Positions 1,306 through 54,064 of a stretch of DNA of 64,000 bases are shown in pieces. The DNA lies in the NCBI GenBank assembly GCA_026400755.1, contig JAPLOM010000011.1, forward strand, positions 135,501 to 199,500, read 5' to 3'. The translations under genes were made by a program, and so were the position numbers. Under the pieces are notes generated by a model. That model did not search any database, had not been told where the DNA came from, and saw only the letters and a list, made by a program, of their open reading frames with translations. The first letter of the stretch is position 1; the number at the start of each line of letters is the position of its first letter. The stretch comes from Alphaproteobacteria bacterium (GTDB lineage Bacteria; Pseudomonadota; Alphaproteobacteria; CADEGL01).

Positions 1306-1475
1306 TTATAGGTTATAGACGATATTTTAAACTATTAATATAGGCTTTAGCCTTTAAACCAATTTTTAGCGCAGAGGGCGGCGCGACACCCTTCTCATCC
1401 TCTAGGCTTTGTTCCTTATTGGTTCTCCTTGCCGATCCCGCATAAGATCGCCGGTCTTCACCAACCGGGGGCTAA

Positions 1476-3000
1476 CTTGGTCGCGCGGGTCACGACGGTT
1501 GCGTTCCAGGGCATCGAGGCGCGCGCGGTGGACGTGCAGGTCCAGATGTCCTCGGGCCTGCCGGCCTTCACCGTGGTGGGGTTGCCCGACAAGGCCGTGG
1601 GCGAATCGCGCGAGCGGGTGCGCGCGGCGCTGACCGCCCTGGGCCTGGCGCTGCCGCCCAAGCGTATCACCGTGAACCTGGCGCCGGCCGACCTGTTGAA
1701 GGAAGGCAGCCATTTCGATCTCCCCATCGCGATCGCGTTGCTGGTCACGCTCGGCGTGTTGCCGGAAGAAGAAATCGCGCAATACGCCGCGCTCGGCGAA
1801 TTGTCCCTCGACGGACAGATCCGCGCCGTCGCCGGCGTGCTGCCCGCCGCCATCACGGCCGCGTCCCTCGGGCGCGGCTTGATCTGTCCGGCCGAGTGCG
1901 GCGGCGAGGCCGCGTGGGCCGGCGAGATCGACGTGTTGGCGACACCGTCGCTCCTCGCCCTCATCAATCATTTCAAGGGCACCCAGGTTTTGTCGCCGCC
2001 GCAGCGCGCATTGGCCGAGGACGGCGCACGCTATCCCGACCTGCGCGACATCAAGGGACAGGAGACAGCCAAGCGCGCGCTCGAGATCGCGGCAGCCGGC
2101 GGCCACAACATTCTGATGATCGGCCCGCCGGGCTCGGGCAAATCCATGCTGGCGCAACGCCTGCCTGGATTGCTGCCGCCGCTCGACGCCGGCGAAGCAC
2201 TGGAAGTGAGCATGGTGCACAGCGTGGCGGGCCTGCTCGATGGCGGGCGCCTCACGCGCCGCCGCCCGTTCCGCGATCCGCATCATTCGGCCTCGCTGCC
2301 CGCGCTTGTCGGCGGTGGTGTGCGCGCGCGGCCAGGCGAGGTGAGCCTGGCCCATAACGGCGTCTTGTTCCTGGACGAGCTGCCGGAGTTCCAGCGCGCG
2401 ACGCTCGAATCCCTGCGCCAGCCGATCGAAAGCGGCCGCGCCACCGTCGCGCGCGCCAACCACCACCTCACCTACCCCGCACGCTTCCAACTGGTGGCCG
2501 CGATGAACCCGTGCCGCTGCGGCCACCTGGCCGACGCTGCCTTCGCTTGCGGCCGTGCGCCCAAATGCGCGCAGGATTATCAGTCGCGCATCAGCGGCCC
2601 CATGTTCGACCGCATCGACCTGCATGTGGACGTGCCGGCGGTGAATCCCTCCGACTTGTCCCTACCGCCACCCGCCGAAGGCAGCGCAGAAGTGGCCGCG
2701 CGCGTGGCCCAAACGCGGGACATCCAACGCGCGCGTTACGCGAAGTACGACTCCGCAACGCCGATCCGCGCCAACGCGCAAGCCGACGGCGAATTACTGG
2801 AAGAAGTCGCTGGCCCCGACGCGGACGGCCGCAAGCTCCTGACCGATGCGGCCGAACGGTTCAAACTGTCCGCGCGCGGCTATCATCGCGTCCTGCGCGT
2901 GGCGCGCACCATCGCCGACCTGATGGGCGCGCCTTCCGTCGCGCGCGGCCACATCGCGGAAGCGCTGGCCTATCGCAAGATCGCGTTGGGGCGAGAGTAA
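1476..3000 (+). CDS. comM: YifB/ComM family Mg-chelatase-like AAA+ ATPase
   Basis: The ORF track gives 1429-3000. The family N-terminus ...VARVTTVAFQGIEA fits a TTG start at about 1476. Walker A (GPPGSGKS), the sensor/arginine-finger region and a C-terminal magnesium-chelatase domain are all present. Confidence 0.85.
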
Positions 3001-3125
3001 GGCCGCGACCCTTGGCCTTTCTGGAACCAGATCGATGAAAGCGGTCTTCCCCATATGAAGCACGGCACAGGCCTTGATTTTGTTTGGGAGGCGTAGGCTG
3101 TGGATCGTGCAAGTGGAGAGGCAAC

Positions 3126-3773
3126 ATGACCGAGGCGTTGACGATCTGGACATTCGATTGGGTGCCCGAAGGCACGCCCGGTCCCCGCGGTTATGTTCGA
3201 GACTTGAGACTGCGCTGGGCATGCGAAGAAGCGGGCTTGGACTACAAAGTCCGGTCTGTTCCGTTCAAGAACCGCGGAGCGGAGCACTTCGCGCGTCAGC
3301 CTTTCGGCCAAGTGCCTTTCCTGGAAGACAGAGGCATCACCGTGTTCGAAAGCGGCGCTTGTCTTCTGCATCTCGCGCGAAAAAGTGAAAAGCTGATGCC
3401 CCACGATCCCGAGGGCGAGGCAGAGACGCTGGAATGGACGATTGCCGCGCTTAATTCCATCGAGATGGTCACGGTGCCTTGGTGGTTCATCGGCCTGTCC
3501 AATAACACGAACAACCCGCTCGAAAGCTGGATGCTGCAGCGCTTGAAACACCTGGAAGCTGTGTTGGCGCAGCGTGAGTGGCTTGCCGCCGGACAGTTTA
3601 CCGTTGCCGATCTCCTGATGGCAGACGTGCTTCGGATCCCGAAGGTCAGGGCTGCCGGTGATTTTCCAGCAATACGATCTTACGTCGATCGAGTCTGCGC
3701 GCGCCCTGCTTTCAAACGAGCCTACGACGGCCAGATGGCGCATTTCGCTAAGGGCGATAAGCTCAGCCGGTAA
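3126..3773 (+). CDS. glutathione S-transferase
   Basis: The ORF track gives 3084-3773. An internal ATG at 3126 (MTEALTIWTF...) gives the typical roughly 215-aa GST. The thioredoxin-like N-domain and helical C-domain pattern are present. Confidence 0.8.
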   Translation: MTEALTIWTFDWVPEGTPGPRGYVRDLRLRWACEEAGLDYKVRSVPFKNRGAEHFARQPFGQVPFLEDRGITVFESGACLLHLARKSEKLMPHDPEGEAETLEWTIAALNSIEMVTVPWWFIGLSNNTNNPLESWMLQRLKHLEAVLAQREWLAAGQFTVADLLMADVLRIPKVRAAGDFPAIRSYVDRVCARPAFKRAYDGQMAHFAKGDKLSR

Positions 3774-3816
3774 CCGGGTAGAATTCGGCGCGCAGAAAGA
3801 GTAGCCACCACTTCCG

Positions 3817-4914
3817 ATGTCCCGCCTTGTCCTCGTTTCCCTCGGCACGTTGAACGGTACGGTCCTGGAGGCCGTGGCGCGCAGCGGCGTGTTCGACGAG
3901 ATCCTGGTCGCAAGCCGCAACGCCGATTACGGGCGGCGCAAGGTGAACACGGCGCGCGTGGGCGCGGCCGTGGTGGGCAAGTTTCCCCGCATCGAATTCG
4001 TGCCCTTCGACCTGAACGGCGCCAACGCAGGCGAAGCGTTGAAGCGCATGGAGGCAGACGTGGTGGTGACCGCGCCGAGCCTTCTGCCCTGGTGGGCGGT
4101 CGACAAGCTGGGCGGCGAGAAGGGTGAGGTGGCGCGCACGGCGCCCTTCGCCACGTTCGTGGCCTGTCACGTGGCGCCCATGCTGGCCTTCCGCCGCGCG
4201 TGGGTGCAGGCGCGGCCCCACGCGGCGTGGATCAACCTGTCCTATCCCGACGGGGTGAACGCGGTGCTGACGCGCACGGGGGCCGGCCCCTTGTGCGGCA
4301 TCGGCAACGTGGAGGAGGCCGTGCCCAAGGCGCGCTTCGCCGTGGCCGATGCGCTGGGCGCGCCGCCGGAAGAGGTCGAGGTGCGCCTGGTCGCGCCCCA
4401 CGCGCTCGAATATTTCCTCTATGCCGCCGAAACGGCGAAGGAATTGCCGCCGTGCCTGGTGAAGGCGACGTGGCGCGGGCGCGACGTCTCGGCCGAAGCA
4501 CGCGCCGGTCTCTTCACCCCCATGCCGATCCTCTACGACATGGATTTCAACCTGTTGACCCAGGCCTCGGCCGTGCGGTTTCTGACCACCTTCATGGCGA
4601 AGGAAAACTCGCTGGTTCATGTGCCGGGGCCGGACGGACGCGTCGGCGGCTATCCCATGCAGGCGGGCAACCGTCGCATCGCCCTCGACCTTCCGCCCGA
4701 ATGGAGCGAAGCCGAGGCCATCGCCATGAACGAGAAGGCCCTGCATTGGGACGGCGTGGCCGGCATCACGAGCGACGGCATCATCCAGTTCACCGACAAG
4801 ACCGCCACCGCCCTGCGCACGCTTCTCGGCCGCAGCGTCTATCAGCTTTCGCCGCACGAGGCGTCGTCGATGGCGAACGAATTGCTGGCCGCGGTGGGCG
4901 CGAAGAAGTCCTAG
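3817..4914 (+). CDS. conserved hypothetical protein, possibly a saccharopine-dehydrogenase-like Rossmann fold
   Basis: 365-aa high-GC ORF with coding-like composition. The product call rests only on a weak resemblance at the N-terminus. Confidence 0.45.
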   Translation: MSRLVLVSLGTLNGTVLEAVARSGVFDEILVASRNADYGRRKVNTARVGAAVVGKFPRIEFVPFDLNGANAGEALKRMEADVVVTAPSLLPWWAVDKLGGEKGEVARTAPFATFVACHVAPMLAFRRAWVQARPHAAWINLSYPDGVNAVLTRTGAGPLCGIGNVEEAVPKARFAVADALGAPPEEVEVRLVAPHALEYFLYAAETAKELPPCLVKATWRGRDVSAEARAGLFTPMPILYDMDFNLLTQASAVRFLTTFMAKENSLVHVPGPDGRVGGYPMQAGNRRIALDLPPEWSEAEAIAMNEKALHWDGVAGITSDGIIQFTDKTATALRTLLGRSVYQLSPHEASSMANELLAAVGAKKS

Positions 4915-22186: not shown

Positions 22187-22858
22187 TTAGGCCAGCCAGA
22201 TCGGGTCCTTGATCTTGGCCAGAAGCGCCTGGTGCGCGGCTTGTTCCTCCGCCGTTGGCGCGTGGGGTCGCGGCGGGCGATGGGTGCGCGAGACGATCTC
22301 TTCCGCCTCGGCCACTAGCTCCGCGCCGGCGAGGCCCAGCGTGGCCTGACGGCCACCGACCAACTCCAGATAGACCTCGGCCAGAAGCTCGGCATCCAAA
22401 AGCGCGCCGTGCTTTGTGCGCTGGGAATTGTCGATGTTGAAGCGCTTACACAACGCATCCAGGCTGGCCGGCGCGCCGGGAAACTTGCGCCGAGCCATCT
22501 CGACCGTGTCGACGGCACGCGCAACGTCCAGAAGCTTGCGATTCACCCGCCTCAACTCGGCGTTCATGAACTTCAGGTCGAATGCCGCGTTGTGAATGAT
22601 CAGGCGCGAATCGCCGATGAACGCCAGGAAATCGTCCACGACCTTCTCGAAAACCGGATGGGTGGCCAGGAATTCCGCGCTGAGTCCGTGAACCGCGAAC
22701 GCGCCTTCCGGCACGTCCCGTTCGGGATTGAGATAGCACTGAAAGCTGCGCCCCGAAGGCAGATGGTTGATCAGCTCGAGACAGCCAATCTCAACCACGC
22801 GGTGGCCCGATTCGGGATCGAGGCCGGTGGTTTCTGTATCGAAGACAATTTCACGCAT
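22187..22858 (-). CDS. dnaQ: DNA polymerase III epsilon subunit (3'-5' exonuclease)
   Basis: MREIVFDTETTGLDP... (Exo I), HNAAFD (Exo II), HGALLDAELLAEVY (Exo III). Confidence 0.9.
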   Translation of the reverse strand: MREIVFDTETTGLDPESGHRVVEIGCLELINHLPSGRSFQCYLNPERDVPEGAFAVHGLSAEFLATHPVFEKVVDDFLAFIGDSRLIIHNAAFDLKFMNAELRRVNRKLLDVARAVDTVEMARRKFPGAPASLDALCKRFNIDNSQRTKHGALLDAELLAEVYLELVGGRQATLGLAGAELVAEAEEIVSRTHRPPRPHAPTAEEQAAHQALLAKIKDPIWLA

Positions 22859-22867
22859 GAGCGGATT

Positions 22868-23509
22868 CTAACGGATGGCGCGGCGCGCGCGAAGCCATTT
22901 GGCCGCGCGGGGGCCGCTTAACAGACGGACGATGGACGCGAGCCCGTCGAACGTCGCGCGTTTGCCAAGACCGCTCGGCACCACGAAGTCCGCGCGGCGG
23001 CGTTTTTCCCGGTCGGGCGTCTGGCGCGCCCGGATCGCAGCCAACCGTTCGCGCGTCATGCCGGATCGGCGCAGCACGCGCGCCTCCTGTACGAAGTCAG
23101 GCGCGCTGATCACGATGCTAGCGTCGTAGCGCCGTTCTCCACCGGTCTCGAACAGAAGCGGAATGTCGAAGGCCAAAAGCCGCGCGCCGCGCGCGGCCAT
23201 GCGGCGATTGAAGCGCTTTTCGGACCCGCGCACCAGCGGATGGACGATTCCTTCCAACCGTTTCAGCGCGGCCGGGTCGCCAAAGACGATTTTCCCGAGC
23301 TTCGTCCGGTCGACGGCGCCACCGACCACCACGCCCGGAAAGGCCTGGCCGACCGGCCTGACCGCGGCCCCTCCCTTTGCGAACAAGGCATGGACCGCCG
23401 CATCGGCGTCGTAGACGGACACGCCCAAGCGACGCAGTTGGGCCGCCGCCGTGGACTTGCCCATTCCGATCGAACCCGTGAGGGCGAGGCGGATGGGACG
23501 GCGCTTCAT
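22868..23509 (-). CDS. coaE: dephospho-CoA kinase
   Basis: An internal ATG (MKRRPIRLALTGSIGMGKST) gives a 213-aa protein with a P-loop. It overlaps the aroE stop by 4 bp. Confidence 0.85.
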   Translation of the reverse strand: MKRRPIRLALTGSIGMGKSTAAAQLRRLGVSVYDADAAVHALFAKGGAAVRPVGQAFPGVVVGGAVDRTKLGKIVFGDPAALKRLEGIVHPLVRGSEKRFNRRMAARGARLLAFDIPLLFETGGERRYDASIVISAPDFVQEARVLRRSGMTRERLAAIRARQTPDREKRRRADFVVPSGLGKRATFDGLASIVRLLSGPRAAKWLRARRAIR

Positions 23510-24354
23510 TTTTTGATATCCGCCGCCAATTCGTCCCACAAGGCGTGCGTCACTTCGGGCTCGACGCCGAACCAAGCATGGAAGCCCGGCCGTCCCTGGT
23601 GCAACAGCATGCCGAGCCCATCGACCGCCATGTGCCCGCGCCGGCGTGCGTCGGCCAGTAGCGGTGTTTCCAGCGGCACATAAACGATGTCGTTGACCAC
23701 GGCGTCCTTGGGCAACGCGTCGAGGGCGAGATCGAGCGGCGGCTGGCCCACCATGCCGAGGCTCGAGGTGTTGACCAGAAGGGCCGCGCCGTCGAGCGCC
23801 TTGCCGCGTGCGTCCCAATCCAAGGCGCGGCAGTTGGGGCCAAGCTGTCCGGCCAGTGTTTCGGCCCGCGCGCGCGTGCGATTGAGGATGCGGATTTCCG
23901 GCACCCCCGCGTCGATCAGCGCGACGCCCACGGCGCGTGCGGCGCCGCCCGCGCCGATCATGACGGCGGCGGCGGCACCCGGCCGCCAGCCGGGTGCGCC
24001 AGCCTTGAGGTTTTCAAGAAAGCCAAAGGCGTCCGTGTTGGAGCCCACCAGCGTTCCATCCGCACGCACGACAATCGTATTCACCGCGCCGATCCGCCGC
24101 GCGACATCGTCGATCTCGGCCAAATGGGGGAGTGCGGTTTCCTTGTGCGGCAGGGTCAGGTTACAGCCGGCGAACCCCAATGCCGGCAGGGCAGCCAGGG
24201 CCTGACCGATCTTTTCGGGACGAACCGCCATGGGCACATAGGCCCCGTCGAGACCGTACCGGCGCAGCCAATGACCGTGCAGCATGGGCGAACGCGAATG
24301 GCCGACCGGCCAGCCCATTACGCCCGCGATCTTTCCTTTGCCCGAGAGTTTCAT
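23506..24354 (-). CDS. aroE: shikimate dehydrogenase
   Basis: MKLSGKGKIAGVMGWPVGHSRSPMLHG... ; 282 aa. Confidence 0.9.
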   Translation of the reverse strand: MKLSGKGKIAGVMGWPVGHSRSPMLHGHWLRRYGLDGAYVPMAVRPEKIGQALAALPALGFAGCNLTLPHKETALPHLAEIDDVARRIGAVNTIVVRADGTLVGSNTDAFGFLENLKAGAPGWRPGAAAAVMIGAGGAARAVGVALIDAGVPEIRILNRTRARAETLAGQLGPNCRALDWDARGKALDGAALLVNTSSLGMVGQPPLDLALDALPKDAVVNDIVYVPLETPLLADARRRGHMAVDGLGMLLHQGRPGFHAWFGVEPEVTHALWDELAADIKK

Positions 24355-24947
24355 GGTTCGACCAGCTTATGTCCGCGCAGGAAATCAAGGAGCGGCAGGA
24401 GCGGCAGTCCAAGGATGGTGAAATAATCTCCTTCGATGCGCGAGAAAAGCTGCGCGCCCAGCCCCTCGAGTTGGTAGGCGCCGACCGACCGGCACGCGGC
24501 ATCGCCGACGCGCGCAAGATATCCGTCCAGGAATGCATCGGTGAAGGGGCGCATATGCAGCGTCGCCACCTCGGTGCGATGCCACAGCCGCGCATCGCCG
24601 CGCGCAACCACCACGGAGGCCGTCAGCCGGTGCGCGCGGCCACGCAAGGCCTGAAGCTGCCGGCGCGCGGCGGCTACGTCCGGTGGCTTGTCGTACATGG
24701 CGCCATCGCAATCCAGCACCTGATCAGCCCCGATCACGAAGGCATCCGGATGGCGCAGCGAAACCTTGCGCGCCTTCAGCTCAGCCAGCGTTTCCGCGAT
24801 GGCGGCCGGCGAGGCATTCTCGCCCTTGAGGCTGTCCTTGACCGCGTCCTCGTCCACGCCTGGCGCTTCGGCGGAAAAGACCACGCCTGCGACCGTGAGC
24901 ATTGTCCGGCGCGATTGGCTGGTAGACGCCAGGATCAGATTGCTCAT
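24351..24947 (-). CDS. maf: Maf-like nucleoside-triphosphate pyrophosphatase
   Basis: MSNLILASTSQSRR... ; 198 aa. Confidence 0.85.
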   Translation of the reverse strand: MSNLILASTSQSRRTMLTVAGVVFSAEAPGVDEDAVKDSLKGENASPAAIAETLAELKARKVSLRHPDAFVIGADQVLDCDGAMYDKPPDVAAARRQLQALRGRAHRLTASVVVARGDARLWHRTEVATLHMRPFTDAFLDGYLARVGDAACRSVGAYQLEGLGAQLFSRIEGDYFTILGLPLLPLLDFLRGHKLVEP

Positions 24948-25762
24948 CCAACCCGCCGCTGGCGTTCATGGTGGAGCTGTATGATGGCGGCCGCCGTCTC
25001 CTCGATCGAGCGGCGCGTCACATCGATGACCGGCCAACCATGCTCGGCACACAAGCGGCGCGCGGCCTCGACTTCGGCTTTCACGGCATCGAAGTCGACA
25101 TACTCCGTCTCGGCGTCGTGATCGATCATGCGCAGCCGGTTGCGCCGGATGGCGACCAGACGCTGCGGATCGTTGGTCAGGCCGACGATCAGGGGACGAT
25201 CGGCCTTCAGAAGCTCTTCAGGTGTTGGGAAGCCTGGCACCAGCGGGATATTGGCGGCCTTGATCCCGCGATTGGCCAGATAGATGCAAGTCGGCGTTTT
25301 CGAAGTGCGCGACACGCCGACCAGAACCACATCGGCCTGATTCAAATCGTGGGTCGATTGACCGTCATCGTGGGTCAGAACGAAGTTCATGGCCTCGATG
25401 CGGTGGAAGTATTCGGAGTCGAGCGCGTGCTGGCGCCCCGGCCGGGCGCCGCCCTGCATGCCGAAATGCATAGCCAGCGTGCGGATCACGGGGTCCAGGA
25501 CAGCGATACACGGAACGTCGAGGCGTTCGCAGGCCGCGCGCAGGCGCGTGCGCAGGTGATCGTTCAGGACGGTGAACATGACGATGCCGGGCTCGGCCTC
25601 GATCGCGCCCAACACCTTGTCGAGCTGGCGTTCGGTGCGCACCATCGACCAGAGATGCTCGATCGTCCGCACCTCCTCGAACTGAACCAGGGCGGCGCGC
25701 GCGACGTTGCCGACCGTCTCGCCGGTCGAGTCGGAAACCAAATGAAGATGGAAGGTTTTCAT
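24944..25762 (-). CDS. DUF299 / pyruvate-phosphate dikinase regulatory protein-like kinase-phosphorylase
   Basis: MKTFHLHLVSDSTGETV...VGVSRTSKTP (P-loop); 272 aa. It is the homologue class of Caulobacter CC0001 / Rickettsia RP001, which flank Cori. Confidence 0.85.
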   Translation of the reverse strand: MKTFHLHLVSDSTGETVGNVARAALVQFEEVRTIEHLWSMVRTERQLDKVLGAIEAEPGIVMFTVLNDHLRTRLRAACERLDVPCIAVLDPVIRTLAMHFGMQGGARPGRQHALDSEYFHRIEAMNFVLTHDDGQSTHDLNQADVVLVGVSRTSKTPTCIYLANRGIKAANIPLVPGFPTPEELLKADRPLIVGLTNDPQRLVAIRRNRLRMIDHDAETEYVDFDAVKAEVEAARRLCAEHGWPVIDVTRRSIEETAAAIIQLHHERQRRVG

Positions 25763-26138
25763 CCCGGCCCCCCTGTTGGCCGTTTCGCGATGTCGGGGAT
25801 AAGTAACCGGTTATCCTCAGGCACCCGCAATCGCCCCCCGCTGGCCCGGATTCGCTCCGAAAGGAATCGGCCTCTGGACAAATACATAGCATGGTCCCGC
25901 AAGACGCGTATAAACTGGCTTGCGGGAAAGTTTTTCACGGAATTCGCGTTCCAAGGCGATGCTAGGTAAGGGTTTGCAGACAGGCTTTCTGGATTCGATA
26001 CCGGTCATCCTGGTTTGAGTCCGATGTTTTAGCTGGCACTGCATTTTCTGTGGGCGAATCCAGGTGGCAGAATAATCACCGTTATCCCAGAGACAACTAC
26101 TGCCACTACCTAAGAATCTTAAATACTCTTTAAGGAAG
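25763..26138. other. probable chromosomal replication origin (Cori/oriC) in the DUF299-hemE divergent gap
   Basis: A 376-bp non-coding gap with the lowest GC in the window. DnaA-box-like 9-mers are at about 25811-25819 (TTATCCTCA, 8/9), 25794-25802 (inverted, 7/9) and 26082-26090 (TTATCCCAG, 7/9). An AT-rich stretch at 26105-26135 holds a TTAA-N7-TTAA motif at 26119-26133. Synteny matches Caulobacter and Rickettsia Cori (hemE / DUF299). Confidence 0.6.
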
Positions 26139-27203
26139 ATGGTGAACGCAAAACCTTCCATACCGGGTCTGGATGAAACGCGCTTTGCGGCCGCATTGGC
26201 TGGCAAGCAAGTAGACCGGCCACCCTTTTGGTTCATGCGCCAGGCTGGGCGCTATCTGCCGGAGTACCGGGAGATCCGCGCCAAGGTTCCGGACTTTCTG
26301 GCGCTCTGCTACACGCCCGAATTGGCGGCGCGGGTGACGCTGCAGCCGATCGAGCGGTTCGGCATGGACGCGGCAATCTTGTTTTCTGACATCCTCGTGG
26401 TGCCGCATGGGCTTGGTGCCGGCGTGCGCTTCGTCGAGGGAGAAGGGCCGCAGCTTGACCCAGTGCGTGGAGCGAAGGATTTGTCGCGCCTGAAGCCCGA
26501 GGCCGTGGCCGCCGTCGTGGCGCCGGTTATGGAGACAGTGCGCCTGGTCCGGCAGCAGCTCGACCCTAAAATTGCGCTGATCGGCTTTGCAGGGGCGCCC
26601 TGGACTGTCGCGACGTACATGGTCGAAGGAGGGTCCAGCCGGGATTTTGCCGCGACCAAGGCATGGGCTTATGGCGATCCGCAGTCGTTCTCGCGGCTGA
26701 TCGACATGCTCGTCGAGGCGACGATTTCCTATCTCGACCACCAGATCGCGGCCGGCGCGGGTGCAGTGCAGTTGTTCGATACCTGGGCAGGGGCGTTGAG
26801 CCCGGATCAGTTCGAACGGTGGGTGATCGATCCGGCACGCCGCATCGTGGATGGAGTCCGCAGGCGACATCCGAGTGTTCCTGTCATCGGATTTCCGCGC
26901 GGCGCAGGGTCCCTCTATCGGCGCTATGTGGAAAAAACGGGCGTGAACTGCGTGGGTATCGACACAGCGGTCGATCCTGCCTGGGCGGCTGAAACACTAC
27001 AGCCGATGGGGACCGTACAAGGCAATCTTGATCCCATGGCGCTGGTCGCGGGCGGTGCGACCATGCGCGCGGAAGCCGAGCGGATTCTGATTGCGCTCGG
27101 CAAGGGTCCGTTCGTCTTCAATCTCGGCCATGGCATTGTGCCGCAGACAGCGCTTGCCCATGTGGCCGAGTTGTCAGCGCTGATCAAGAACTGGCGGGCC
27201 TGA
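26139..27203 (+). CDS. hemE: uroporphyrinogen decarboxylase
   Basis: 354 aa with PFWFMRQAGRYLPEY and the other HemE signatures. AAGGAAG RBS. Confidence 0.95.
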   Translation: MVNAKPSIPGLDETRFAAALAGKQVDRPPFWFMRQAGRYLPEYREIRAKVPDFLALCYTPELAARVTLQPIERFGMDAAILFSDILVVPHGLGAGVRFVEGEGPQLDPVRGAKDLSRLKPEAVAAVVAPVMETVRLVRQQLDPKIALIGFAGAPWTVATYMVEGGSSRDFAATKAWAYGDPQSFSRLIDMLVEATISYLDHQIAAGAGAVQLFDTWAGALSPDQFERWVIDPARRIVDGVRRRHPSVPVIGFPRGAGSLYRRYVEKTGVNCVGIDTAVDPAWAAETLQPMGTVQGNLDPMALVAGGATMRAEAERILIALGKGPFVFNLGHGIVPQTALAHVAELSALIKNWRA

Positions 27204-27204
27204 G

Positions 27205-28239
27205 ATGGTGCGGACGGCCGTTGTCCTCCTCAACCTCGGCGCGCCGGATAAACCGTCTGCCGTGCGGCCGTTCCTCAAGAACATGTTCAGTGATCCAGCG
27301 ATCCTGTCGGTGCCGGGCCCGATGCGCTGGTTCCTGGCAAGGCTGATCTCGGGCCTGCGCGCCCGCAAGGCGATCCCGATCTATGAACAACTGGGCGGTG
27401 GCTCGCCCCTGTTGCCCAACACGGAAGCCCAGGCGGCTTCGCTCGAACGCGTGCTGGGGATGGATTCACGGGTCTTCGTCTCCATGCGCTATTGGCACCC
27501 CATGAGCGCCGCATGCGTGGCGGCTGTGAAACGCTATGCGCCGGATCGCATCGTTCTGTTGCCGCTCTATCCGCAGTTCTCCGGCACCACGACGGGATCG
27601 TCGTTCGCGGATTGGCGGCGGGCGGCGGCGCGGGCTGGCCTCTCTGCGCCTATCCACGCCATCTGCTGTTATCCGCGCCAGGACGGCTGGATCGGTGCCG
27701 TTGCTGATCTGATCCGCGCCGCACTGGCGCAAGTGGGACCGGCGGGCAAGCCGCGCATCCTCTTCTCCGCCCATGGCCTGCCCAAGAAGGTGATCGCCGG
27801 TGGCGACCCCTATCAGTGGCAGGTCGAGCGGACGGTCGACGCGGTGGTGGCTGCGTTGGGCGACGGGCTCGACTGGTCGATTTGCTACCAAAGCCGGGTT
27901 GGTCCGCTCGAATGGATCGGCCCTTCGACCGAGGACGAGATCGACCGCGCCGGCCGCGATGGCGTGCCCATCCTGGTGGTGCCCATCGCCTTCGTGTCCG
28001 AACACTCCGAGACCCTGGTCGAGCTGGACATCGAGTATCGGCATCGCGCCGAGCGCGCCGGCGTGCCGGGTTATATTCGCGTCCCGGCGGTCGCGACCCA
28101 TGCCCGCTTCATCGCCGGGCTGGCGGATCTGGTGGGGGCGGCCGTAACGGCAAATCTGCCGCTCATATCCGCCGAAAACGCGCGGATATGCCCCGTAAAC
28201 CGCACCGGATGCCCCTGTTCGGAGGCAAAACCGTCATGA
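27205..28239 (+). CDS. hemH: ferrochelatase
   Basis: MVRTAVVLLNLGAPD... ; 344 aa; 1-bp spacing after hemE. Confidence 0.9.
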   Translation: MVRTAVVLLNLGAPDKPSAVRPFLKNMFSDPAILSVPGPMRWFLARLISGLRARKAIPIYEQLGGGSPLLPNTEAQAASLERVLGMDSRVFVSMRYWHPMSAACVAAVKRYAPDRIVLLPLYPQFSGTTTGSSFADWRRAAARAGLSAPIHAICCYPRQDGWIGAVADLIRAALAQVGPAGKPRILFSAHGLPKKVIAGGDPYQWQVERTVDAVVAALGDGLDWSICYQSRVGPLEWIGPSTEDEIDRAGRDGVPILVVPIAFVSEHSETLVELDIEYRHRAERAGVPGYIRVPAVATHARFIAGLADLVGAAVTANLPLISAENARICPVNRTGCPCSEAKPS

Positions 28240-28685
28240 TCGAATGGCTGACCAGCGTCTATCCGTGGCTCAAGGCCCTGCACATCATCAGCGTCATCTC
28301 TTGGATGGCTGGGTTGCTCTATCTGCCGCGTCTGTTCGCCTATCACGCGGCGGCCACACCGGGTGGCGAAGCGTCCAAAACCTTCAAGACCATGGAGCGC
28401 CGCCTGCTGCGCGCCATCATGAATCCTGCCATGGGTGCGACCTATCTCTTCGGTATCCTACTAGCGGTGGTGCAGGGTCCGGCGCTTTGGCAAAGCGGCT
28501 GGTTCCACGCGAAGCTGCTCTTCGTGGTTGCCCTGACGGTCCTGCACCATCTGATGGCAGCGTGGCGGAAGGATTTCGCCGCCGACCGCAACCACCGCCC
28601 CGCCCGGTTTTACAAAATCATGAACGAGGTCCCGACGATTCTCATGATTGGGATTGTGATTTTTGTGGTCGTGCGCCCCTTCTAA
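28236..28685 (+). CDS. hemJ: protoporphyrinogen IX oxidase HemJ (UPF0093/CopD-like)
   Basis: An internal ATG (MIEWLTSVYPWLKALHIISVISWMAGLLYLPRLFAYH) overlaps the hemH stop (ATGA). 149 aa with four TM segments. Confidence 0.8.
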   Translation: MIEWLTSVYPWLKALHIISVISWMAGLLYLPRLFAYHAAATPGGEASKTFKTMERRLLRAIMNPAMGATYLFGILLAVVQGPALWQSGWFHAKLLFVVALTVLHHLMAAWRKDFAADRNHRPARFYKIMNEVPTILMIGIVIFVVVRPF

Positions 28686-28878
28686 GCTCAGAGGCCCTTG
28701 GCGCGCGACCTGGATTGGCCTATATTTCCTTTCGTTCCGAACCACCTACCCCTTCGCTTCGTTTAGGTCTTAGACCCGTCTGTGCGGTCCTCCCGCCTGG
28801 ACATGCCGCAGCCACACTGGCCTAGGCGGAAGCGCTTCCCTCCCCATTATTCAAGCGGCGCCAAAAGGCGGAAATGCC

Positions 28879-30165
28879 ATGAATCTCCAGTCCGCGAAGG
28901 ACAAGGGACTCTACCTCCAGGACCTCAAGAAAAAGACGCCCGCCGAGCTATTGAGCTTCGCGGAAGAGCTGAAGATCGAAAACGCGAGCAACCTGCGCAA
29001 GCAGGACATGATGTTCGCGATCCTGAAGCAGCTTGCGGATAACGAGGTTCCCATCCACGGCGATGGCGTGCTCGAGACGCTGCAGGACGGCTTCGGCTTC
29101 CTGCGCTCGCCCGAAGCCAACTATCTGCCGGGCCCCGACGACATTTACGTCTCGCCCAGCCAGGTGCGCCGCTTCGGCCTTCGCACCGGCGACACGGTCG
29201 AGGGTCAGATCCGCTCGCCCAAGGACGGCGAGCGTTACTTCGCCCTTCTCAAGGTCAACCGGATCAACTTTGGCGACTCCGAAGAGGTCCGCCATCGCAT
29301 CAACTTTGACAACCTGACGCCGCTCTATCCCGAGAAGCGTCTGAAGCTTGAGATCGAGAAGCCCACGGGCAAAGACCTGACCACGCGCGTGATCGACTTG
29401 ATCGCGCCGTTGGGCAAGGGCCAGCGCGCACTCATCGTGGCACCCCCACGCACCGGCAAGACGGTGATGCTGCAGAACATCGCGCACGCTATCTCGGCCA
29501 ACCACCCCGAGGTCTATCTGATCGTTCTTCTGATCGACGAGCGACCCGAGGAAGTCACCGACATGCAGCGTTCGGTGAAGGGCGAGGTCATCAGCTCGAC
29601 CTTCGACGAGCCGGCGACACGTCACGTCCAGGTCACCGAGATGGTGCTGGAAAAGGCCAAGCGTCTGGTCGAGCACAAGCGCGACGTGGTGATCCTGCTG
29701 GACTCGATCACGCGCCTTGCGCGCGCCTACAACACCGTCGTGCCGTCTTCGGGCAAGGTGCTGACGGGTGGTGTGGACGCGAATGCGCTGCAGCGTCCGA
29801 AACGCTTCTTCGGCGCCGCGCGCAACATCGAAGAAGGTGGCTCGCTTTCCATCATCGCGACCGCGCTGATCGATACCGGCTCGCGCATGGACGAAGTGAT
29901 CTTCGAAGAGTTCAAGGGCACTGGTAATTCGGAAATCATCCTGGACCGCAAGCTGTCCGACCGTCGCACCTGGCCCGCTATCGACATCACCCGCTCCGGC
30001 ACCCGCAAGGAAGAGCTGCTGGTGGACAAGGGTATCCTGTCCAAGATGTGGGTCTTGCGCCGTATCCTGATGCCCATGGGCGTCACGGACGCGATGGAAT
30101 TCCTGAACGACAAGTTGAAGCAGTCCAAGAACAACGCGGACTTCTTCGAAGCCATGAACACCTGA
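28879..30165 (+). CDS. rho: transcription termination factor Rho
   Basis: 428 aa. N-terminal domain plus RecA-like ATPase with Walker A PPRTGKT. Preceded by a ~190-bp leader. Confidence 0.95.
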
Positions 30166-30190
30166 CGCGATCCGTCAGAGTCACGAAAAA

Positions 30191-30221
30191 GGGCGGGGGA
30201 GCTGGAATGGCTCCGCCGCCC
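30191..30221. terminator. GC-rich hairpin between convergent rho and qor (possible bidirectional terminator)
   Basis: GGGCGGGGGAGC-tggaatg-GCTCCGCCGCCC is flanked by AAAAA on the left and TTATCGTTTG on the right. The T-tract is good for the minus-strand gene and weaker for rho. Confidence 0.5.
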
Positions 30222-30235
30222 TTATCGTTTGTGGA

Positions 30236-31210
30236 TCATGGAATGAAGACCGTGGAGCCCGTTGTCTTGCGCGCTTCCAGGTCGCGATGCGCCTGGGCGG
30301 CGTCTTTGAGCGGATAGGTCTGGTTGACCGCGATCTTCACCGCGCCAGAGGTGACCACATCGAACAGGGCCTTGGCGCTTTCCTCCAGATCGGCGCGCGT
30401 CGCGGTATAGGCTACGAGCGAAGGCCGAGTCAGATAGAGCGAGCCCTTGGCGCCCAAGATGGCCGGTGAGAACGAGGCCACGGGACCGGAGGCGTTGCCA
30501 AAACTGACCATAAGCCCGCGGGGACGCAGGCAGTCCAACGACCCTTCGAACGTGTCCTTGCCGATGGAATCGTAAACCACGGGCACGCCGGCGCCGCCGG
30601 TAATCTCTCTCACCTGCTTGGCGAAATCTTCGCGCGTGTAGACAATCGTGTGATCGCAGCCATGGGCCTTGGCCAACTTGGCCTTCTCGTCGGAGCCGAC
30701 CGTGCCGATGACGGTTGCGCCGAGATGCTTGGCCCATTGGCAGAAGATCAGGCCAATCCCGCCGGCCGCGGCATGGATCACGACTGTGTCGCCGCGTTTG
30801 ACCGGATAGGTGCGCCGGACCAAGTACTCGACCGTCATGCCTTGCAGCATCATGGCGGCGGCTTGCTGGTCCGTGATCGCGTCGGGCACGCGCACGACGC
30901 GCTCTGCCGCGATCAGGCGTGCCTCCGCATAGGCGCCGACAGGAGCCGAGGCATAAGCGACGCGGTCGCCGGGCTTGAGGCTGGTGACGCCCGGGCCGAC
31001 GGCCTCCACGGTTCCCGCCCCTTCCATACCGATCACGCTTGGATAGGTCAGCGGGTAAAGACCGGTGCGGTGATAGACGTCGATGTAGTTAAGGCCGACC
31101 GCGCCGTGGCGCACGAGGATCTGGCCGGCGCCCGGCTTGTCGAGCGCGACCTCTTCCCAGGTCAGCGCTTCTGGCCCGCCGGCTTTGTGGATTCGGATCG
31201 CCTTTACCAT
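30236..31210 (-). CDS. qor: NADPH:quinone oxidoreductase (zinc-free MDR family)
   Basis: An internal ATG (MVKAIRIHKAGGPEAL...) and the nucleotide-binding motif AAAGGIG. 324 aa. Confidence 0.8.
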   Translation of the reverse strand: MVKAIRIHKAGGPEALTWEEVALDKPGAGQILVRHGAVGLNYIDVYHRTGLYPLTYPSVIGMEGAGTVEAVGPGVTSLKPGDRVAYASAPVGAYAEARLIAAERVVRVPDAITDQQAAAMMLQGMTVEYLVRRTYPVKRGDTVVIHAAAGGIGLIFCQWAKHLGATVIGTVGSDEKAKLAKAHGCDHTIVYTREDFAKQVREITGGAGVPVVYDSIGKDTFEGSLDCLRPRGLMVSFGNASGPVASFSPAILGAKGSLYLTRPSLVAYTATRADLEESAKALFDVVTSGAVKIAVNQTYPLKDAAQAHRDLEARKTTGSTVFIP

Positions 31211-36648: not shown

Positions 36649-36664
36649 TGTTTCACGTGAAACA
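36649..36664. promoter_or_regulatory. parS centromere-like site 1 (perfect TGTTTCACGTGAAACA)
   Basis: The exact 16-bp parS consensus palindrome lies immediately after the mnmE stop. The extended 18-bp palindrome ATGTTTCACGTGAAACAT spans 36648-36665. Confidence 0.8.
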
Positions 36665-36678
36665 TTAGCCTTTCCTCA

Positions 36679-36694
36679 TGTTTCACGTGAAACA
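36679..36694. promoter_or_regulatory. parS centromere-like site 2 (perfect TGTTTCACGTGAAACA)
   Basis: Second exact copy, 30 bp downstream of site 1, also inside an 18-bp palindrome ATGTTTCACGTGAAACAT. Confidence 0.8.
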
Positions 36695-38615: not shown

Positions 38616-39235
38616 ATATCGATGATTTTCAAAAGGCTACGGGCGTTTCACGTGAAACTCGGGATCGGCTCTCGCATTATGCGGAACTTCTCCTCCGTTG
38701 GAACCACGCCATCAACCTGGTTGCCAACGGCAGCCTCAAGGATTTGTGGAAGCGCCACTTCCTGGATTCGGCCCAATTACTCCCCCTCATTCCGACAGAA
38801 GGCCCGGACGACGTGGTTGATTTTGGTTCGGGCGCCGGCTTTCCAGGGCTGGTGTTAGCCATCATGGGCGCTGGCCAAGTTCACTTGATCGAACGGGACG
38901 AACGCAAATGCGCCTTCTTACGAGAAGTCGCCCATAAGACGGCGGCGCCCATCACGGTTCACAACATGGACCTTAATAAGGTGACGCCCTGGCCGGTCAA
39001 AGCCGTGACAGCGCGCGCCTTTGCCCCTCTCTCCAACCTCCTGCCCTTTGCCGCGCCGTTCATCGACCAGGGCGCGTTAGGGCTTTTTCTCAAAGGCAAG
39101 ACGCTCGACGATGAATTGACCCAGTCATCGAAAGAGTGGAGAATCCTGGCTGATCGCGTTCCGAGCGCAAGCGATCCGGCGGGCTGCATCCTTCGGGTAC
39201 GGAAGCTAGGACATGATCATTCAAAATCAGACTGA
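38612..39235 (+). CDS. rsmG: 16S rRNA (guanine527-N7)-methyltransferase RsmG (GidB)
   Basis: TTG start overlapping the mnmG stop. Conserved VSRET...LLLRWN motifs and SAM site [13 protein letters not shown]. Confidence 0.85.
38644..38659. promoter_or_regulatory. parS-like site 3 (CGTTTCACGTGAAACT, 14/16) inside the rsmG 5' coding region
   Basis: The 14-bp palindromic core GTTTCACGTGAAAC encodes the conserved GidB VSRET motif. Confidence 0.45.
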
Positions 39236-40043
39236 GTCCTCTATGGTGGTGGAGCCGATCAAGGCGCCGACCCGAATTCTCGCAATCGCCAACCAGAAAG
39301 GCGGCGTGGGAAAGACCACCACGGCGGTCAATCTGGGTACGGCCCTGGCCGCTGTGGGTGAGAAGGTTCTCCTGATCGATCTCGATCCGCAGGGAAACGC
39401 CAGCACGGGTCTAGGCATTGATCGGCGCGATCGCGGGGTCGGGACCTATCACGTCGTGATCGAAGGCGTGGACGCGAAAAGCGCGATCCTTCCGACAACC
39501 ATCCCGAATCTCAGCGTGATTTCATCGTCGGTCGATCTGTCAGGCGCCGAATTGGAACTCGTGGGGCTCCCTAATCGCGAACACCGGTTGCGGGAGGCCA
39601 TTCGCCAGATTTCCGATTCCTACAGCTATATCCTGATCGACTGTCCGCCTGCGTTGGGTCTTCTAACGCTCAACGCCTTTTCGGCAGCCGACGCTGTTCT
39701 GGTCCCGCTGCAATGTGAATTCTATGCGCTTGAAGGCTTAAGCCATTTGGTGCGGACCATCGAGCGCGTCAAACGCGCGTTCAACCCGCGGCTAGAGATA
39801 CAAGGGCTCGTGTTGACCATGTTCGATAAACGCAACAGCTTGTGTGATCTGGTCGCAAGCGATGTGCGGCAACATTTCGGAGACAAGGTCTATCAGACCG
39901 TCATTCCGCGCAATGTGCGTGTCTCTGAAGCGCCCTCCCACGGTAAGCCCGTGCTGCTCTACGACTTCAAATGCGCCGGGTCCCAGGCTTACATCCATTT
40001 GGCCAGCGAGGTCATTCGCCGCGAACAGGCGCTGCGCGCATGA
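39213..40043 (+). CDS. parA: chromosome partitioning ATPase ParA
   Basis: Deviant Walker A is IANQKGGVGKTTTAVNLG. An alternative start is the ATG at about 39243. The ORF start overlaps the rsmG end. Confidence 0.9.
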   Translation: MIIQNQTESSMVVEPIKAPTRILAIANQKGGVGKTTTAVNLGTALAAVGEKVLLIDLDPQGNASTGLGIDRRDRGVGTYHVVIEGVDAKSAILPTTIPNLSVISSSVDLSGAELELVGLPNREHRLREAIRQISDSYSYILIDCPPALGLLTLNAFSAADAVLVPLQCEFYALEGLSHLVRTIERVKRAFNPRLEIQGLVLTMFDKRNSLCDLVASDVRQHFGDKVYQTVIPRNVRVSEAPSHGKPVLLYDFKCAGSQAYIHLASEVIRREQALRA

Positions 40044-40909
40044 ACACCGACGACAAGCGCCGGCACTTGGGTCGAGGCCTTTCGGCTCTCCTGGGTGACG
40101 ATGGGATAGAGACCGCCTCGTCGGACGCATCCCGCCCGCCCCGTTTCGTCGCCCTCGACCTATTGCGTCCCGGCCGGTTCCAACCACGCCGCCGCTTCGT
40201 CCAGGAAGAGATGGATTCGCTCGAAGCATCGATCCGCGAAAAGGGCGTCATCCAACCGATCCTCGTCCGTAAAACGAGCGATCAGGCTTACGAAATCATC
40301 GCCGGAGAACGCCGCTGGCGGGCGGCCCAGCGCGCAGGCCTGCACGAGCTGCCGGTCGTCGTCCGCGAATTGAACGACCGCGAAGCGCTGGAAATTGCCC
40401 TGGTCGAAAACGTCCAACGCGCCGATCTCTCGCCCATCGAGGAGGCGCTCGGCTATCAACGTCTAATGACCGAGTTCGATCATACGCAGGAGCAGCTGTC
40501 GAAAGTGGTCGGCAAAAGCCGCAGCCACGTTGCCAACCTGCTCCGTCTTCTCGACCTTCCGCCTGGCGTCAAAACGCTGCTTGATGGTGGCAAGATCTCA
40601 GCGGGTCATGCGCGCGCGCTTCTAGGCGTCGAAAACGCCGAAACGCTGGCGCGCCAGATCGTGGCGCGGAATCTCAATGTCCGTCAGACCGAGCGACTGA
40701 CCCAGCTCGGAAAAAAGCGGAATGCGAGAAAGCAGACCTTGTCCGCCAAGGACACGGACACGCTGGCGCTCGAACGTGAATTGTCGGCGTTGCTTGGCCT
40801 CAAGGTAACACTGAAGCCGTCCGGCAAAGCGGGCGACCTGTCCATCCGCTACGAAAGCCTCGAGCAGCTCGATGATGTCGTTCAGCGCCTGAGCGCGAAG
40901 CCCGCCTAG
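40040..40909 (+). CDS. parB: chromosome partitioning protein ParB
   Basis: MNTDDKRRHLGRGLSALL..., the ParB box GERRWRAA and an HTH; 289 aa. ATGA overlap with the parA stop. Confidence 0.9.
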   Translation: MNTDDKRRHLGRGLSALLGDDGIETASSDASRPPRFVALDLLRPGRFQPRRRFVQEEMDSLEASIREKGVIQPILVRKTSDQAYEIIAGERRWRAAQRAGLHELPVVVRELNDREALEIALVENVQRADLSPIEEALGYQRLMTEFDHTQEQLSKVVGKSRSHVANLLRLLDLPPGVKTLLDGGKISAGHARALLGVENAETLARQIVARNLNVRQTERLTQLGKKRNARKQTLSAKDTDTLALERELSALLGLKVTLKPSGKAGDLSIRYESLEQLDDVVQRLSAKPA

Positions 40910-52894: not shown

Positions 52895-54064
52895 CTATTT
52901 GTAAGGATCGGCCGCGTCGCGCAGCCCGTCGCCCAGGAAGTTGAAGGCCAGGACCACGACGATGACGGGAACCACCGGCAGCATCAGCCAGGGGTAGAGC
53001 GCGACCACGTTGATGTTCTGCGCTTCGTTCAGGAGAACGCCCCAGCTTGTGATGGGTGGCCGCAAGCCAAGACCCAGGAACGACAGGGCCGTTTCGCCCA
53101 GGATCATGCTCGGGATGGAAAGCGTGGCCGAGGCGATCAAGTGGCTCATGAAGCTGGGCATCAGATGCCGTCCGATGATGCGCTTCGGCGATGCGCCCAT
53201 CAGTTGGGCGGCGGTGCAGAAATCTTCTTCGCGCAAGGCCAATAGCTTCGAGCGGACTGCGCGGGCCAAGCCGGTCCAATCGAGCAGGCCGAGGATCATC
53301 GTGATGCCGAAATAGATGACCAGCGGGCTCCACGTCACGGGTAATGCCGCCGATAAGGCCATCCATAGAGGCAGATGCGGGAACGAGCGGAACACCTCGA
53401 TGATGCGCTGGGTGATGTTGTCGATCCAGCCGCCGTAATAGCCGGCCAGGCCGCCGATGACGATGCCGAGCGTAAAGCTGACCGTGATGCCGATCAGGCC
53501 GATCGTCAGCGAGATGCGCGCGCCATAGAGGATGCGCGACAGCATGTCTCGGCCCAACCGGTCCGTGCCCAGAACGAAGAGTTGTCCGCCCTTGGGGGGG
53601 CAGACCAAGTGAAACCGGCCTGGAATCATGCCCCAGAATTCGTAGGCGTCGCCCATGCAGAAGAAGCGTAGCGGCAGGACCTTCGAGCGGTCGTCGGCGT
53701 ACTCCCATTTGAGGACGTCCATGTTCAAATTCGTCTTGAGGCCATACACAAAGGGGCCGACGAACGAGCCGTCATGGAACAGGTGCACGGCCTGGGGCGG
53801 CACGAACAGGTAGTCGGTGTGGCGCGTGTGCTGGTTGTAGGGCGCCAGGACTTCGCTCACCAGAATGGAGGCGTAGAAGATCAGCAGGATGATGCCGGAA
53901 ATGACGGCGATGCGGTGGCGTTTGAACTTCCACCACATCAACTTCCACTGGGACGCCAGGTAATAGCGTTCCTGCTCGGGTGTCAGGATGTCGACCCCAT
54001 AGGGGTCGAACGCGCCCTTGGCGACGTAGTGACGGGCCTCGTCGGGCATCGGGCGGTCCGTCAT
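52895..54064 (-). CDS. yejE: ABC transporter permease (YejE-like, oligopeptide/microcin-C type)
   Basis: An internal ATG (MTDRPMPDEARHYV...) and a BPD-transporter EAA loop in ...AAQLMGASPKRIIGRHLMP.... It overlaps the yejB stop. Confidence 0.8.
   Translation of the reverse strand: MTDRPMPDEARHYVAKGAFDPYGVDILTPEQERYYLASQWKLMWWKFKRHRIAVISGIILLIFYASILVSEVLAPYNQHTRHTDYLFVPPQAVHLFHDGSFVGPFVYGLKTNLNMDVLKWEYADDRSKVLPLRFFCMGDAYEFWGMIPGRFHLVCPPKGGQLFVLGTDRLGRDMLSRILYGARISLTIGLIGITVSFTLGIVIGGLAGYYGGWIDNITQRIIEVFRSFPHLPLWMALSAALPVTWSPLVIYFGITMILGLLDWTGLARAVRSKLLALREEDFCTAAQLMGASPKRIIGRHLMPSFMSHLIASATLSIPSMILGETALSFLGLGLRPPITSWGVLLNEAQNINVVALYPWLMLPVVPVIVVVLAFNFLGDGLRDAADPYK

Follow-up and report, generated by a model that had tools for sequence, protein, structure and literature searches.

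In Caulobacter the chromosomal origin, Cori, is located between hemE and duf299 and comprises two moderate and five weak DnaA boxes, five CtrA sites, a site for integration host factor (IHF), five GANTC sites and an AT-rich region; its replication needs transcription from the hemE promoter (PMC6393856), and the equivalent Caulobacter fragment alone sustains autonomous replication (PMC5587793). The same boundary genes are found in Rickettsia, with gaps of 383-404 bp across taxa (PMC1914354 Table 1). In Azospirillum, a DoriC/Ori-Finder prediction places oriC between yqfL (DUF299) and hemE, together with six DnaA boxes and parS sites at distances of 9.9 and 11.8 kb (preprint 10.64898/2026.09.14.751567). 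Here we describe a 376-bp gap between the same two genes in a 64-kb stretch of alphaproteobacterial DNA (64,000 nucleotides of contig JAPLOM010000011.1, hereafter the window). Ori-Finder-type tools use hemE as an indicator gene for the hemE-linked class of origins. On comparative grounds, and with a probability of roughly 0.85, we regard the gap as the chromosomal replication origin (oriC), of the hemE-linked alphaproteobacterial type, in an uncultured Rhodospirillales-like host; judged by its position and content, it is homologous to Cori and to other hemE-linked origins of the class. The original prediction, made on this DNA earlier, had likewise called the gap a chromosome origin, and synteny, the neighbouring parS sites and parAB genes, the DnaA boxes of 116 comparable gaps and a pooled switch in GC skew all support that call. 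The support comes mainly from such comparative evidence and not from the DnaA-box count on which the prediction had drawn.

The gap and the genes that frame it are arranged as follows.

25763..26138, no strand: candidate oriC gap of 376 bp, GC 0.53 compared with 0.65 in the flanks
24944..25762, minus strand: left boundary gene, DUF299 / kinase-pyrophosphorylase (PpsR/YqfL-like; Pfam PF03618, 1.1e-96)
26139..27203, plus strand: right boundary gene hemE, uroporphyrinogen decarboxylase (Pfam PF01208, 1.6e-122)
22187..24947, minus strand: maf-aroE-coaE-dnaQ cluster downstream of DUF299 (Pfam)

We propose an oriC at this position because the synteny is that of the published origins (PMC6393856, PMC1914354, PMC5587793, 10.64898/2026.09.14.751567), because parS and parAB lie nearby and the gap is low in GC, has an unstable duplex and carries a GANTC cluster, and because such gaps are enriched in DnaA boxes throughout the class and coincide with a switch in skew. 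According to coordinates and Pfam matches, the gap is placed between hemE and the DUF299/COG1806 gene, as is characteristic of a Cori-type origin. Leftward from DUF299 the minus strand carries maf, aroE, coaE and a dnaQ-type exonuclease gene, after which comes secB; hemE is followed on its right by hemH, hemJ (UPF0093) and rho (all by Pfam). Thus both the hemE operon and the DUF299-maf-aroE-coaE-dnaQ operon are directed away from the gap. About 60 of 80 genome loci, and every close relative, share the order dnaQ-coaE-aroE-maf-DUF299. On these points, namely the extent of the gap between divergent DUF299 and hemE genes, the maf-aroE-coaE-dnaQ order beside DUF299 and the reading direction of hemE-hemH-hemJ away from the origin, the original prediction agrees with the coordinates and Pfam matches. 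The hemE start is more likely the GTG at 26142 than the ATG at 26139, since AGGA at 26133-26136 would then lie 5 nt upstream and a 353-aa protein is called in the related locus L162; the gap would in that case measure 379 bp.

Among all 376-bp stretches of the window the GC minimum (0.495) is found at 25861-26236 and thus overlaps the gap. The earlier description of the gap as the largest and lowest-GC non-coding stretch therefore holds for its GC content, while its rank as the largest, which depends on crude gene calls, is plausible. Other stretches that appeared non-coding (3.0-3.8, 4.9-5.7, 18.3-19.3, 53.3-54.1 and 55.8-57.0 kb) were rejected as coding or probably coding; they contain genes for GST, lutA, hisB, an SBP_bac_5 gene and a permease. 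The permease-like gene of ABC type (about 53316-54060, minus strand) has a frame that is broken near a G7 run (...CCCTTGGGGGGGCAGACC...), probably through a frameshift or an assembly error, and for this reason the region first looked like a 745-bp gap. Scans of the whole window with Rfam (gathering threshold) and for tRNA genes gave no matches. A dnaA gene, which the prediction had likewise reported as absent from these 64 kb, was found neither by its RDHTTV-type signature in six frames nor by tblastn with DnaA probes. A dnaA gene away from oriC is normal in Alphaproteobacteria.

In order to place the gap among its relatives, we compared 116 non-identical DUF299|hemE gaps from fetched loci, labelled L001-L172. 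The DUF299 protein is identical to P0001 of an NCBI metagenome-assembled genome (MAG) named 'Alphaproteobacteria bacterium', and the closest hemE matches reach 61% in GTDB species representatives and 64% in JGI metagenomes. Relatives with 69-81% DUF299 identity share the whole neighbourhood. Since the gap alignment to these relatives is too diverged for column-wise footprinting, we relied on motif statistics over the 116 gaps. Their lengths form a tight cluster at about 350-450 bp. Counting DnaA boxes with at most one mismatch, the gaps contain 208, compared with 10 in composition-matched shuffles; the density amounts to 4.2 per kb in gaps versus 0.13 per kb in flanks, the overall enrichment is 20-31-fold, and 84% of the gaps have at least one such box. 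In an unbiased screen for enriched 7-mers the top hits were all fragments of DnaA boxes.

A switch in GC skew is also located at these gaps. Pooled over the 45 loci that extend 6 kb or more to either side, the skew was -0.023 toward DUF299 and +0.018 toward hemE, and the difference was positive in 40 of the 45 loci (Wilcoxon 2e-9), which are not fully independent because orthologous genes recur at the same positions. In bins beyond +/-5 kb, where the gene content differs, the signs are unchanged. Once gene orientation enters the regression as a covariate, 39 GC-rich loci with 706 genes give a side coefficient of 0.015 +/- 0.002. The orientation effect is opposite in sign and therefore cannot create the pooled pattern. 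Out of seven breakpoints tested in the pooled data, the gap was the best.

Further support comes from the partition locus, which lies beyond rho in the order mnmE, mnmG, rsmG, parA, parB (Pfam).

36649..36664 and 36679..36694, no strand: two perfect parS sites, TGTTTCACGTGAAACA, in the mnmE/mnmG gap (0.06 expected)
38644..38659, no strand: third, parS-like site with two mismatches, inside rsmG
39213..40909, plus strand: parA-parB (Pfam)

The two perfect sites are 14 bp apart in the 95-bp mnmE/mnmG gap, 10.5 kb from the oriC gap, and are located upstream of parAB rather than downstream. With parS and parAB at about 10-14 kb, the locus has the partition genes near the origin as expected for the Cori type. 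The window is the origin-proximal part of the main chromosome, and the parS sites between 36649 and 38659 are its putative centromere. The opposing view, which makes the replicon a secondary chromosome or megaplasmid and denies the gap the role of a DnaA-dependent chromosomal origin, is taken up below.

Within the gap itself, DnaA boxes were scored against the consensus TTATCCACA, with mismatches counted over nine positions.

25794..25802, minus strand: DnaA box TTATCCCCG (7/9), 31 bp from the DUF299 start
25811..25819, plus strand: DnaA box TTATCCTCA (8/9), the best in the gap, paired with the 25794 box as GGATAA-N8-TTATCC
25873..25881, minus strand: DnaA-box-like TTGTCCAGA (7/9), absent from the original prediction, within a block conserved in the closest relatives
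26049..26057, minus strand: weak DnaA-box-like TCGCCCACA (6/9), by itself at chance level
26082..26090, plus strand: weak DnaA-box-like TTATCCCAG (6/9), proximal to hemE; TTATCCC is among the top-enriched 7-mers across the gaps

A re-scan reproduced every motif coordinate given earlier, and corrected one score: the 26082 box had been put at 7/9, and TTATCCCAG matches TTATCCACA at 6/9. The 25794 box occupies a conserved position. In 80 of the 116 gaps, versus 14 of 116 after shuffling, a minus-oriented box with at most two mismatches is found no more than 88 nt from where DUF299 starts, and the window's copy is retained in L170, L168, L169 and L172. L170, a relative with 81% identity, keeps the full GGGGATAA-N8-TTATCC pair. 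The head-to-head GGATAA-N8-TTATCC arrangement as such was rejected as a conserved feature, being present in only 5 of 116 gaps. As for the 25873 box, the TTGTCCACA variant and the 7-mers GTGGACA and GGGACAA are enriched across gaps. The block at 25876-25917, GGACAAATACATAGCATGG...CGCAAGACGCGTATAAAC, is recognisably conserved in L165, L167, L168, L169 and L172 (ACAAA..ATACCATGG..GTATAAC). Its left edge carries the 7/9 DnaA-like box; otherwise it matches none of the motifs tested.

Over the whole window, TTATCCACA with at most one mismatch occurs seven times, once in the gap, against 3.5 expected. The 4.4 kb from 25811 to 30238 hold four of these seven boxes: one in the gap, one in hemE (26927), one in rho (29034) and, where rho and ADH converge, TGATCCACA at 30230. 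Noticed post hoc, this grouping suggests DnaA titration sites flanking the origin.

Two side observations concern the compared loci. L042 (JBNOAI010000001.1), labelled Leptospira interrogans strain LS0056, is an 873-kb contig with an alphaproteobacterial dnaQ-maf-DUF299|hemE-rho order and 50-81% identity to proteins of the window; contamination or mislabelling of the assembly is the probable reason. L169 (72% DUF299 identity) has at 2280-4546 an IS21-family element (rve transposase and IstB) just past rho and some 5 kb away from the presumed origin.

The gap also contains six GANTC sites, which the original prediction had missed; five are given here and the remaining one is part of a palindrome listed further below.

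25849..25853, no strand: GATTC; relatives keep a site at this position, about 290 bp before hemE
25864..25868, no strand: GAATC
25992..25996, no strand: GATTC
26017..26021, no strand: GAGTC
26056..26060, no strand: GAATC

The six sites compare with 1.5 expected from composition or 1.1 from other non-coding DNA (P ~0.003 and ~0.001, respectively) and represent the maximum over all 376-bp windows of the 64 kb. In the window as a whole GANTC is depleted about twofold (154 sites versus 301 +/- 17 expected), a pattern that fits CcrM-type methylation shaping the genome; no ccrM gene is present in the 64-kb window. The window and L162, L165/L166 and L167 all keep a GANTC site 14-25 bp before hemE. 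In L169 and L172 the nearest one is 55-62 bp from hemE, and L168 has none there.

Further elements are found at the hemE-proximal end of the gap.

26106..26146, no strand: the gap's least stable, AT-rich portion, a candidate DNA unwinding element that reaches over the ribosome-binding site and start of hemE
26094..26110, plus strand: CTA-repeat tract CAACTACTGCCACTACC, candidate degenerate DnaA-trio array (complement 3'-GAT GAC GGT GAT-5')
26113..26121, no strand: palindrome AAGAATCTT with central GANTC (26114-26118); AGA-N-TCT is present in 49 of 116 gaps

At -46.3 kcal/mol (mean -64.1, sd 4.2), 26106-26146 ranks second in instability among all 41-bp duplexes of the 64 kb, and an AT content of at least 0.63 in 30-bp windows is reached within the gap only at this AT-rich hemE end. 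The gap thus has the easily melted, AT-rich segment of a Cori-type origin. Across the window, AT content peaks and stability is lowest elsewhere, at 1303-1365 (82% AT over 40 bp), in a short gap ahead of a Mg-chelatase/ComM-like gene (1429-3000) and without a cluster of DnaA boxes.

The other two elements recur in related gaps. CCACTAC is present in 26 gaps, 25-75 bp ahead of hemE, and the tract is strand-specific, with CTACTAC in 20 gaps on the hemE-sense strand versus one on the other. For AGA-N-TCT, 43 of 53 occurrences lie within 50 bp of the hemE start. Many gaps share one order at the hemE end, i.e. a DnaA box, CCACTAC(TAC)n, AAGA-N-TCTT with central GANTC and the AT-rich end, and the window has it as well (26082, 26094-26110, 26113-26121 and 26106-26146). 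CCACTAC(TAC)n and AAGA-N-TCTT/GANTC sit 0-75 bp before hemE in many alphaproteobacterial lineages; DnaA-trios, a methylation-sensitive site and promoter or leader elements of hemE are candidate roles for them.

With regard to the first of these roles, the DnaA-trio consensus is 3'-GAT-5', and the basal unwinding system (BUS) has been defined in other bacteria (PMC8287927, PMC6669920). The rule that we applied demands a box with at most two mismatches 0-16 bp upstream of the trios in a fixed orientation, followed by at least three consecutive trios with central A. In the window the proximal box TTATCCCAG has three mismatches and only two consecutive central-A trios are present (GAT GAC GGT GAT), while AT-rich DNA of the unwinding type (26105-26146) does follow directly past the CTA tract. 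Three or more GAT repeats are present in many relatives. Applied to the class, the rule is enriched only about threefold over shuffles and has no strand preference. Because the formal rule fails here and lacks a strand preference class-wide, we rejected a classification of the tract as DnaA-trios and keep it as a lead.

Taking together the anatomy, synteny and motif statistics of the locus with the conservation and GC-skew switch at class level, we infer DnaA binding, a site of unwinding, methylation and any part played by CtrA along the following lines. DnaA, encoded elsewhere, would bind a few mostly weak boxes, on the DUF299-proximal side those at 25794, 25811 and 25873 and on the hemE-proximal side the one at 26082. 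The DnaA oligomer would grow toward the hemE end and open the duplex at about 26106-26146, where the CTA tract (26094-26110) might serve as a degenerate DnaA-trio array contacting single-stranded DNA, and activity of the hemE promoter possibly aids opening, as in Caulobacter. The two forks would move in the direction of transcription of the two divergent operons, DUF299-maf-aroE-coaE-dnaQ and hemE-hemH-hemJ-rho. The six GANTC sites would offer a dense target for a CcrM-type methylase, the hemimethylated state distinguishing a replicated origin from an unreplicated one. ParB on the parS sites 10.5 kb away would then segregate the newly copied origin region.

A variant of this reading adds repression by CtrA to the origin. 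It is suggested by one element:

26119..26133, no strand: TTAA-N7-TTAA (full site of CtrA type) TTAAATACTCTTTAA, overlapping the hemE ribosome-binding site and the AT-rich end and no DnaA box

The re-scan agrees with the original prediction on this perfect motif and its overlap with the hemE ribosome-binding site. If phosphorylated CtrA occupied 26119-26133, it would cover the unwinding region together with the hemE ribosome-binding site and block initiation in one cell type. The site is the sole occurrence in 64 kb, where 0.04 are expected (P=0.003 in gap shuffles), it lies within the AT-rich end, and the Caulobacter Cori has five CtrA sites (PMC6393856). Yet it is single, and the several sites of the Caulobacter model, at least one of them over a DnaA box, are not present in the gap. 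CtrA sites serve as a mark of Cori-type origins in Caulobacter and Rickettsiales, though not universally. A perfect TTAA-N7-TTAA occurs in only 4 of 116 gaps, and in the closest relatives, L166-L172, the motif is absent even when one mismatch is allowed. The AAGA-N-TCTT palindrome, which is widely conserved, supplies its left half, and the full-site match may therefore be a by-product. Neither in S. meliloti (PMC4433202) nor in Brucella (PMC2877005) does CtrA bind the origin, and its ancestral role is considered to be in motility (PMC4433202, citing Greene 2012). The earlier claim had carried CtrA binding over from Caulobacter; since the site is unconserved and CtrA stays off the origin in those two taxa, that binding is not transferable. 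The genes ctrA, cckA and chpT are not in the 64-kb window. We consider control by CtrA at this site unlikely.

Similarly doubtful is the proposal that the hemE-proximal module is a methylation-gated unwinding unit, in which the CTA repeats would act as DnaA-trios and methylation of the GANTC site, or a reader of it, would gate opening by DnaA; the copy in this lineage would then have become very weak through drift and gained a CtrA-type site.

Several results weigh against the gap being an origin. Three boxes with at most two mismatches (25794, 25811, 25873) were counted against 0.88 expected (P=0.055, shuffles), and three other 376-bp windows also reach three. A single box in the gap attains 8/9. 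The DnaA-box-like 9-mers of the original prediction are real as motifs, and their number is not clearly above chance. After regression on gene orientation, the in-window skew has a side term of +0.006 +/- 0.0045, which is of origin-type sign and not significant; a breakpoint scan prefers no position, so that 64 kb of skew are uninformative, and gene-strand bias around the gap is weak. A consensus scan with WATCAANNNNTTR for the IHF site, one of the features by which Brassinga and Ioannidis recognised Cori-type origins, found no match within one mismatch on either strand of the gap. A scan of the gap for sigma-70-type promoters and terminators found none. The partial dependence of the pooled skew loci and the two departures from the BUS rule, both mentioned above, belong to the same list.

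Some of these results would suit an alternative in which the gap is only a divergent promoter or regulatory region, its boxes and GANTC sites serve transcription, and the origin lies elsewhere, e.g. beside dnaA outside the window. The modest box count, equalled by three other windows, and the failure of in-window skew to single out the gap speak for this reading. Moreover, GANTC is generally denser in non-coding DNA (3.65 vs 2.26 per kb) and 3.6-fold denser in gaps than in flanks, and in Alphaproteobacteria DnaA and CcrM are also regulators of transcription (PMC2877005). Against it stand the 20-31-fold class-wide enrichment of DnaA boxes, the tight gap length, the skew switch in 40 of 45 loci and the presence of parS and parAB 10-14 kb away, and the equivalent Caulobacter fragment replicates autonomously (PMC5587793). 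Promoter and origin roles are in any case compatible, because hemE transcription belongs to Cori function (PMC6393856). A purely regulatory gap thus appears improbable. The idea of a secondary chromosome or megaplasmid, for which nothing specific speaks beyond the absence of dnaA from the window, itself usual next to an alphaproteobacterial oriC, can be dismissed on gene content and parS, as the window carries the core genes rho, leuS, hemE/H/J, mnmE/G, rsmG, hslU, his genes, secB and dnaQ as well as canonical chromosomal parS, and no rep or repABC genes were seen in it.

An origin of the hemE-linked type at 25763-26138 would set the zero point of this chromosome, which is of use for orienting the MAG, for peak-to-trough estimates of growth rate and for analyses of strand bias. 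It would add a poorly sampled Rhodospirillales-like lineage to the hemE-linked origins. The DUF299-proximal box, the strand-specific CTA tract and the AAGA-N-TCTT/GANTC palindrome form a modest resource for studies of initiation. As the origin type is already known from Caulobacter, Rickettsia and Azospirillum, current understanding is unchanged.

When compared with known systems, the hemE end of the gap resembles the BUS of Bacillus subtilis incC and other bacteria in having a box, a short spacer, CTA-type repeats and AT-rich DNA; the version in the window is degenerate and differs in its box and trios as described. The chromosomal origin of Sinorhizobium meliloti, which we take to be hemE-linked, belongs to another order (Hyphomicrobiales) and would be the likely functional analogue if the window's CtrA-type site is fortuitous. 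In Rickettsia prowazekii and R. typhi the origin lies between hemE and RP001 (COG1806) in a gap of 383-384 bp (PMC1914354 Table 1), whereas these very AT-rich genomes have predicted CtrA and IHF sites and no sequence similarity to the window. Azospirillum, of a Rhodospirillales-type lineage, shares both boundary genes, and its oriC is separated by about 10-12 kb from two palindromic 16-bp parS sites and by about 12 kb from parAB; the window corresponds with parS at 10.5 kb and parA at 13 kb. It differs in having one 8/9 and two 7/9 boxes instead of six DnaA boxes, and in the location of parS upstream of mnmG and not downstream of parB. Differences from Cori are the five CtrA sites and IHF site there, as opposed to one unconserved CtrA-type motif and no IHF consensus here, and the experimental demonstration of origin function for Cori only. 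In addition, the 25 kb on the left of the gap and the 38 kb on its right are without dnaA, while Caulobacter dnaA lies a few genes from Cori. With Cori (hemE / CCNA_00001/duf299) the gap shares its boundary genes and flanking cluster, a length of about 400 bp, mostly weak DnaA boxes and an AT-rich region (PMC6393856, PMC1914354, PMC5587793), along with a cluster of GANTC sites, five in Cori and six in the window, and parS/parB within about 10 kb.

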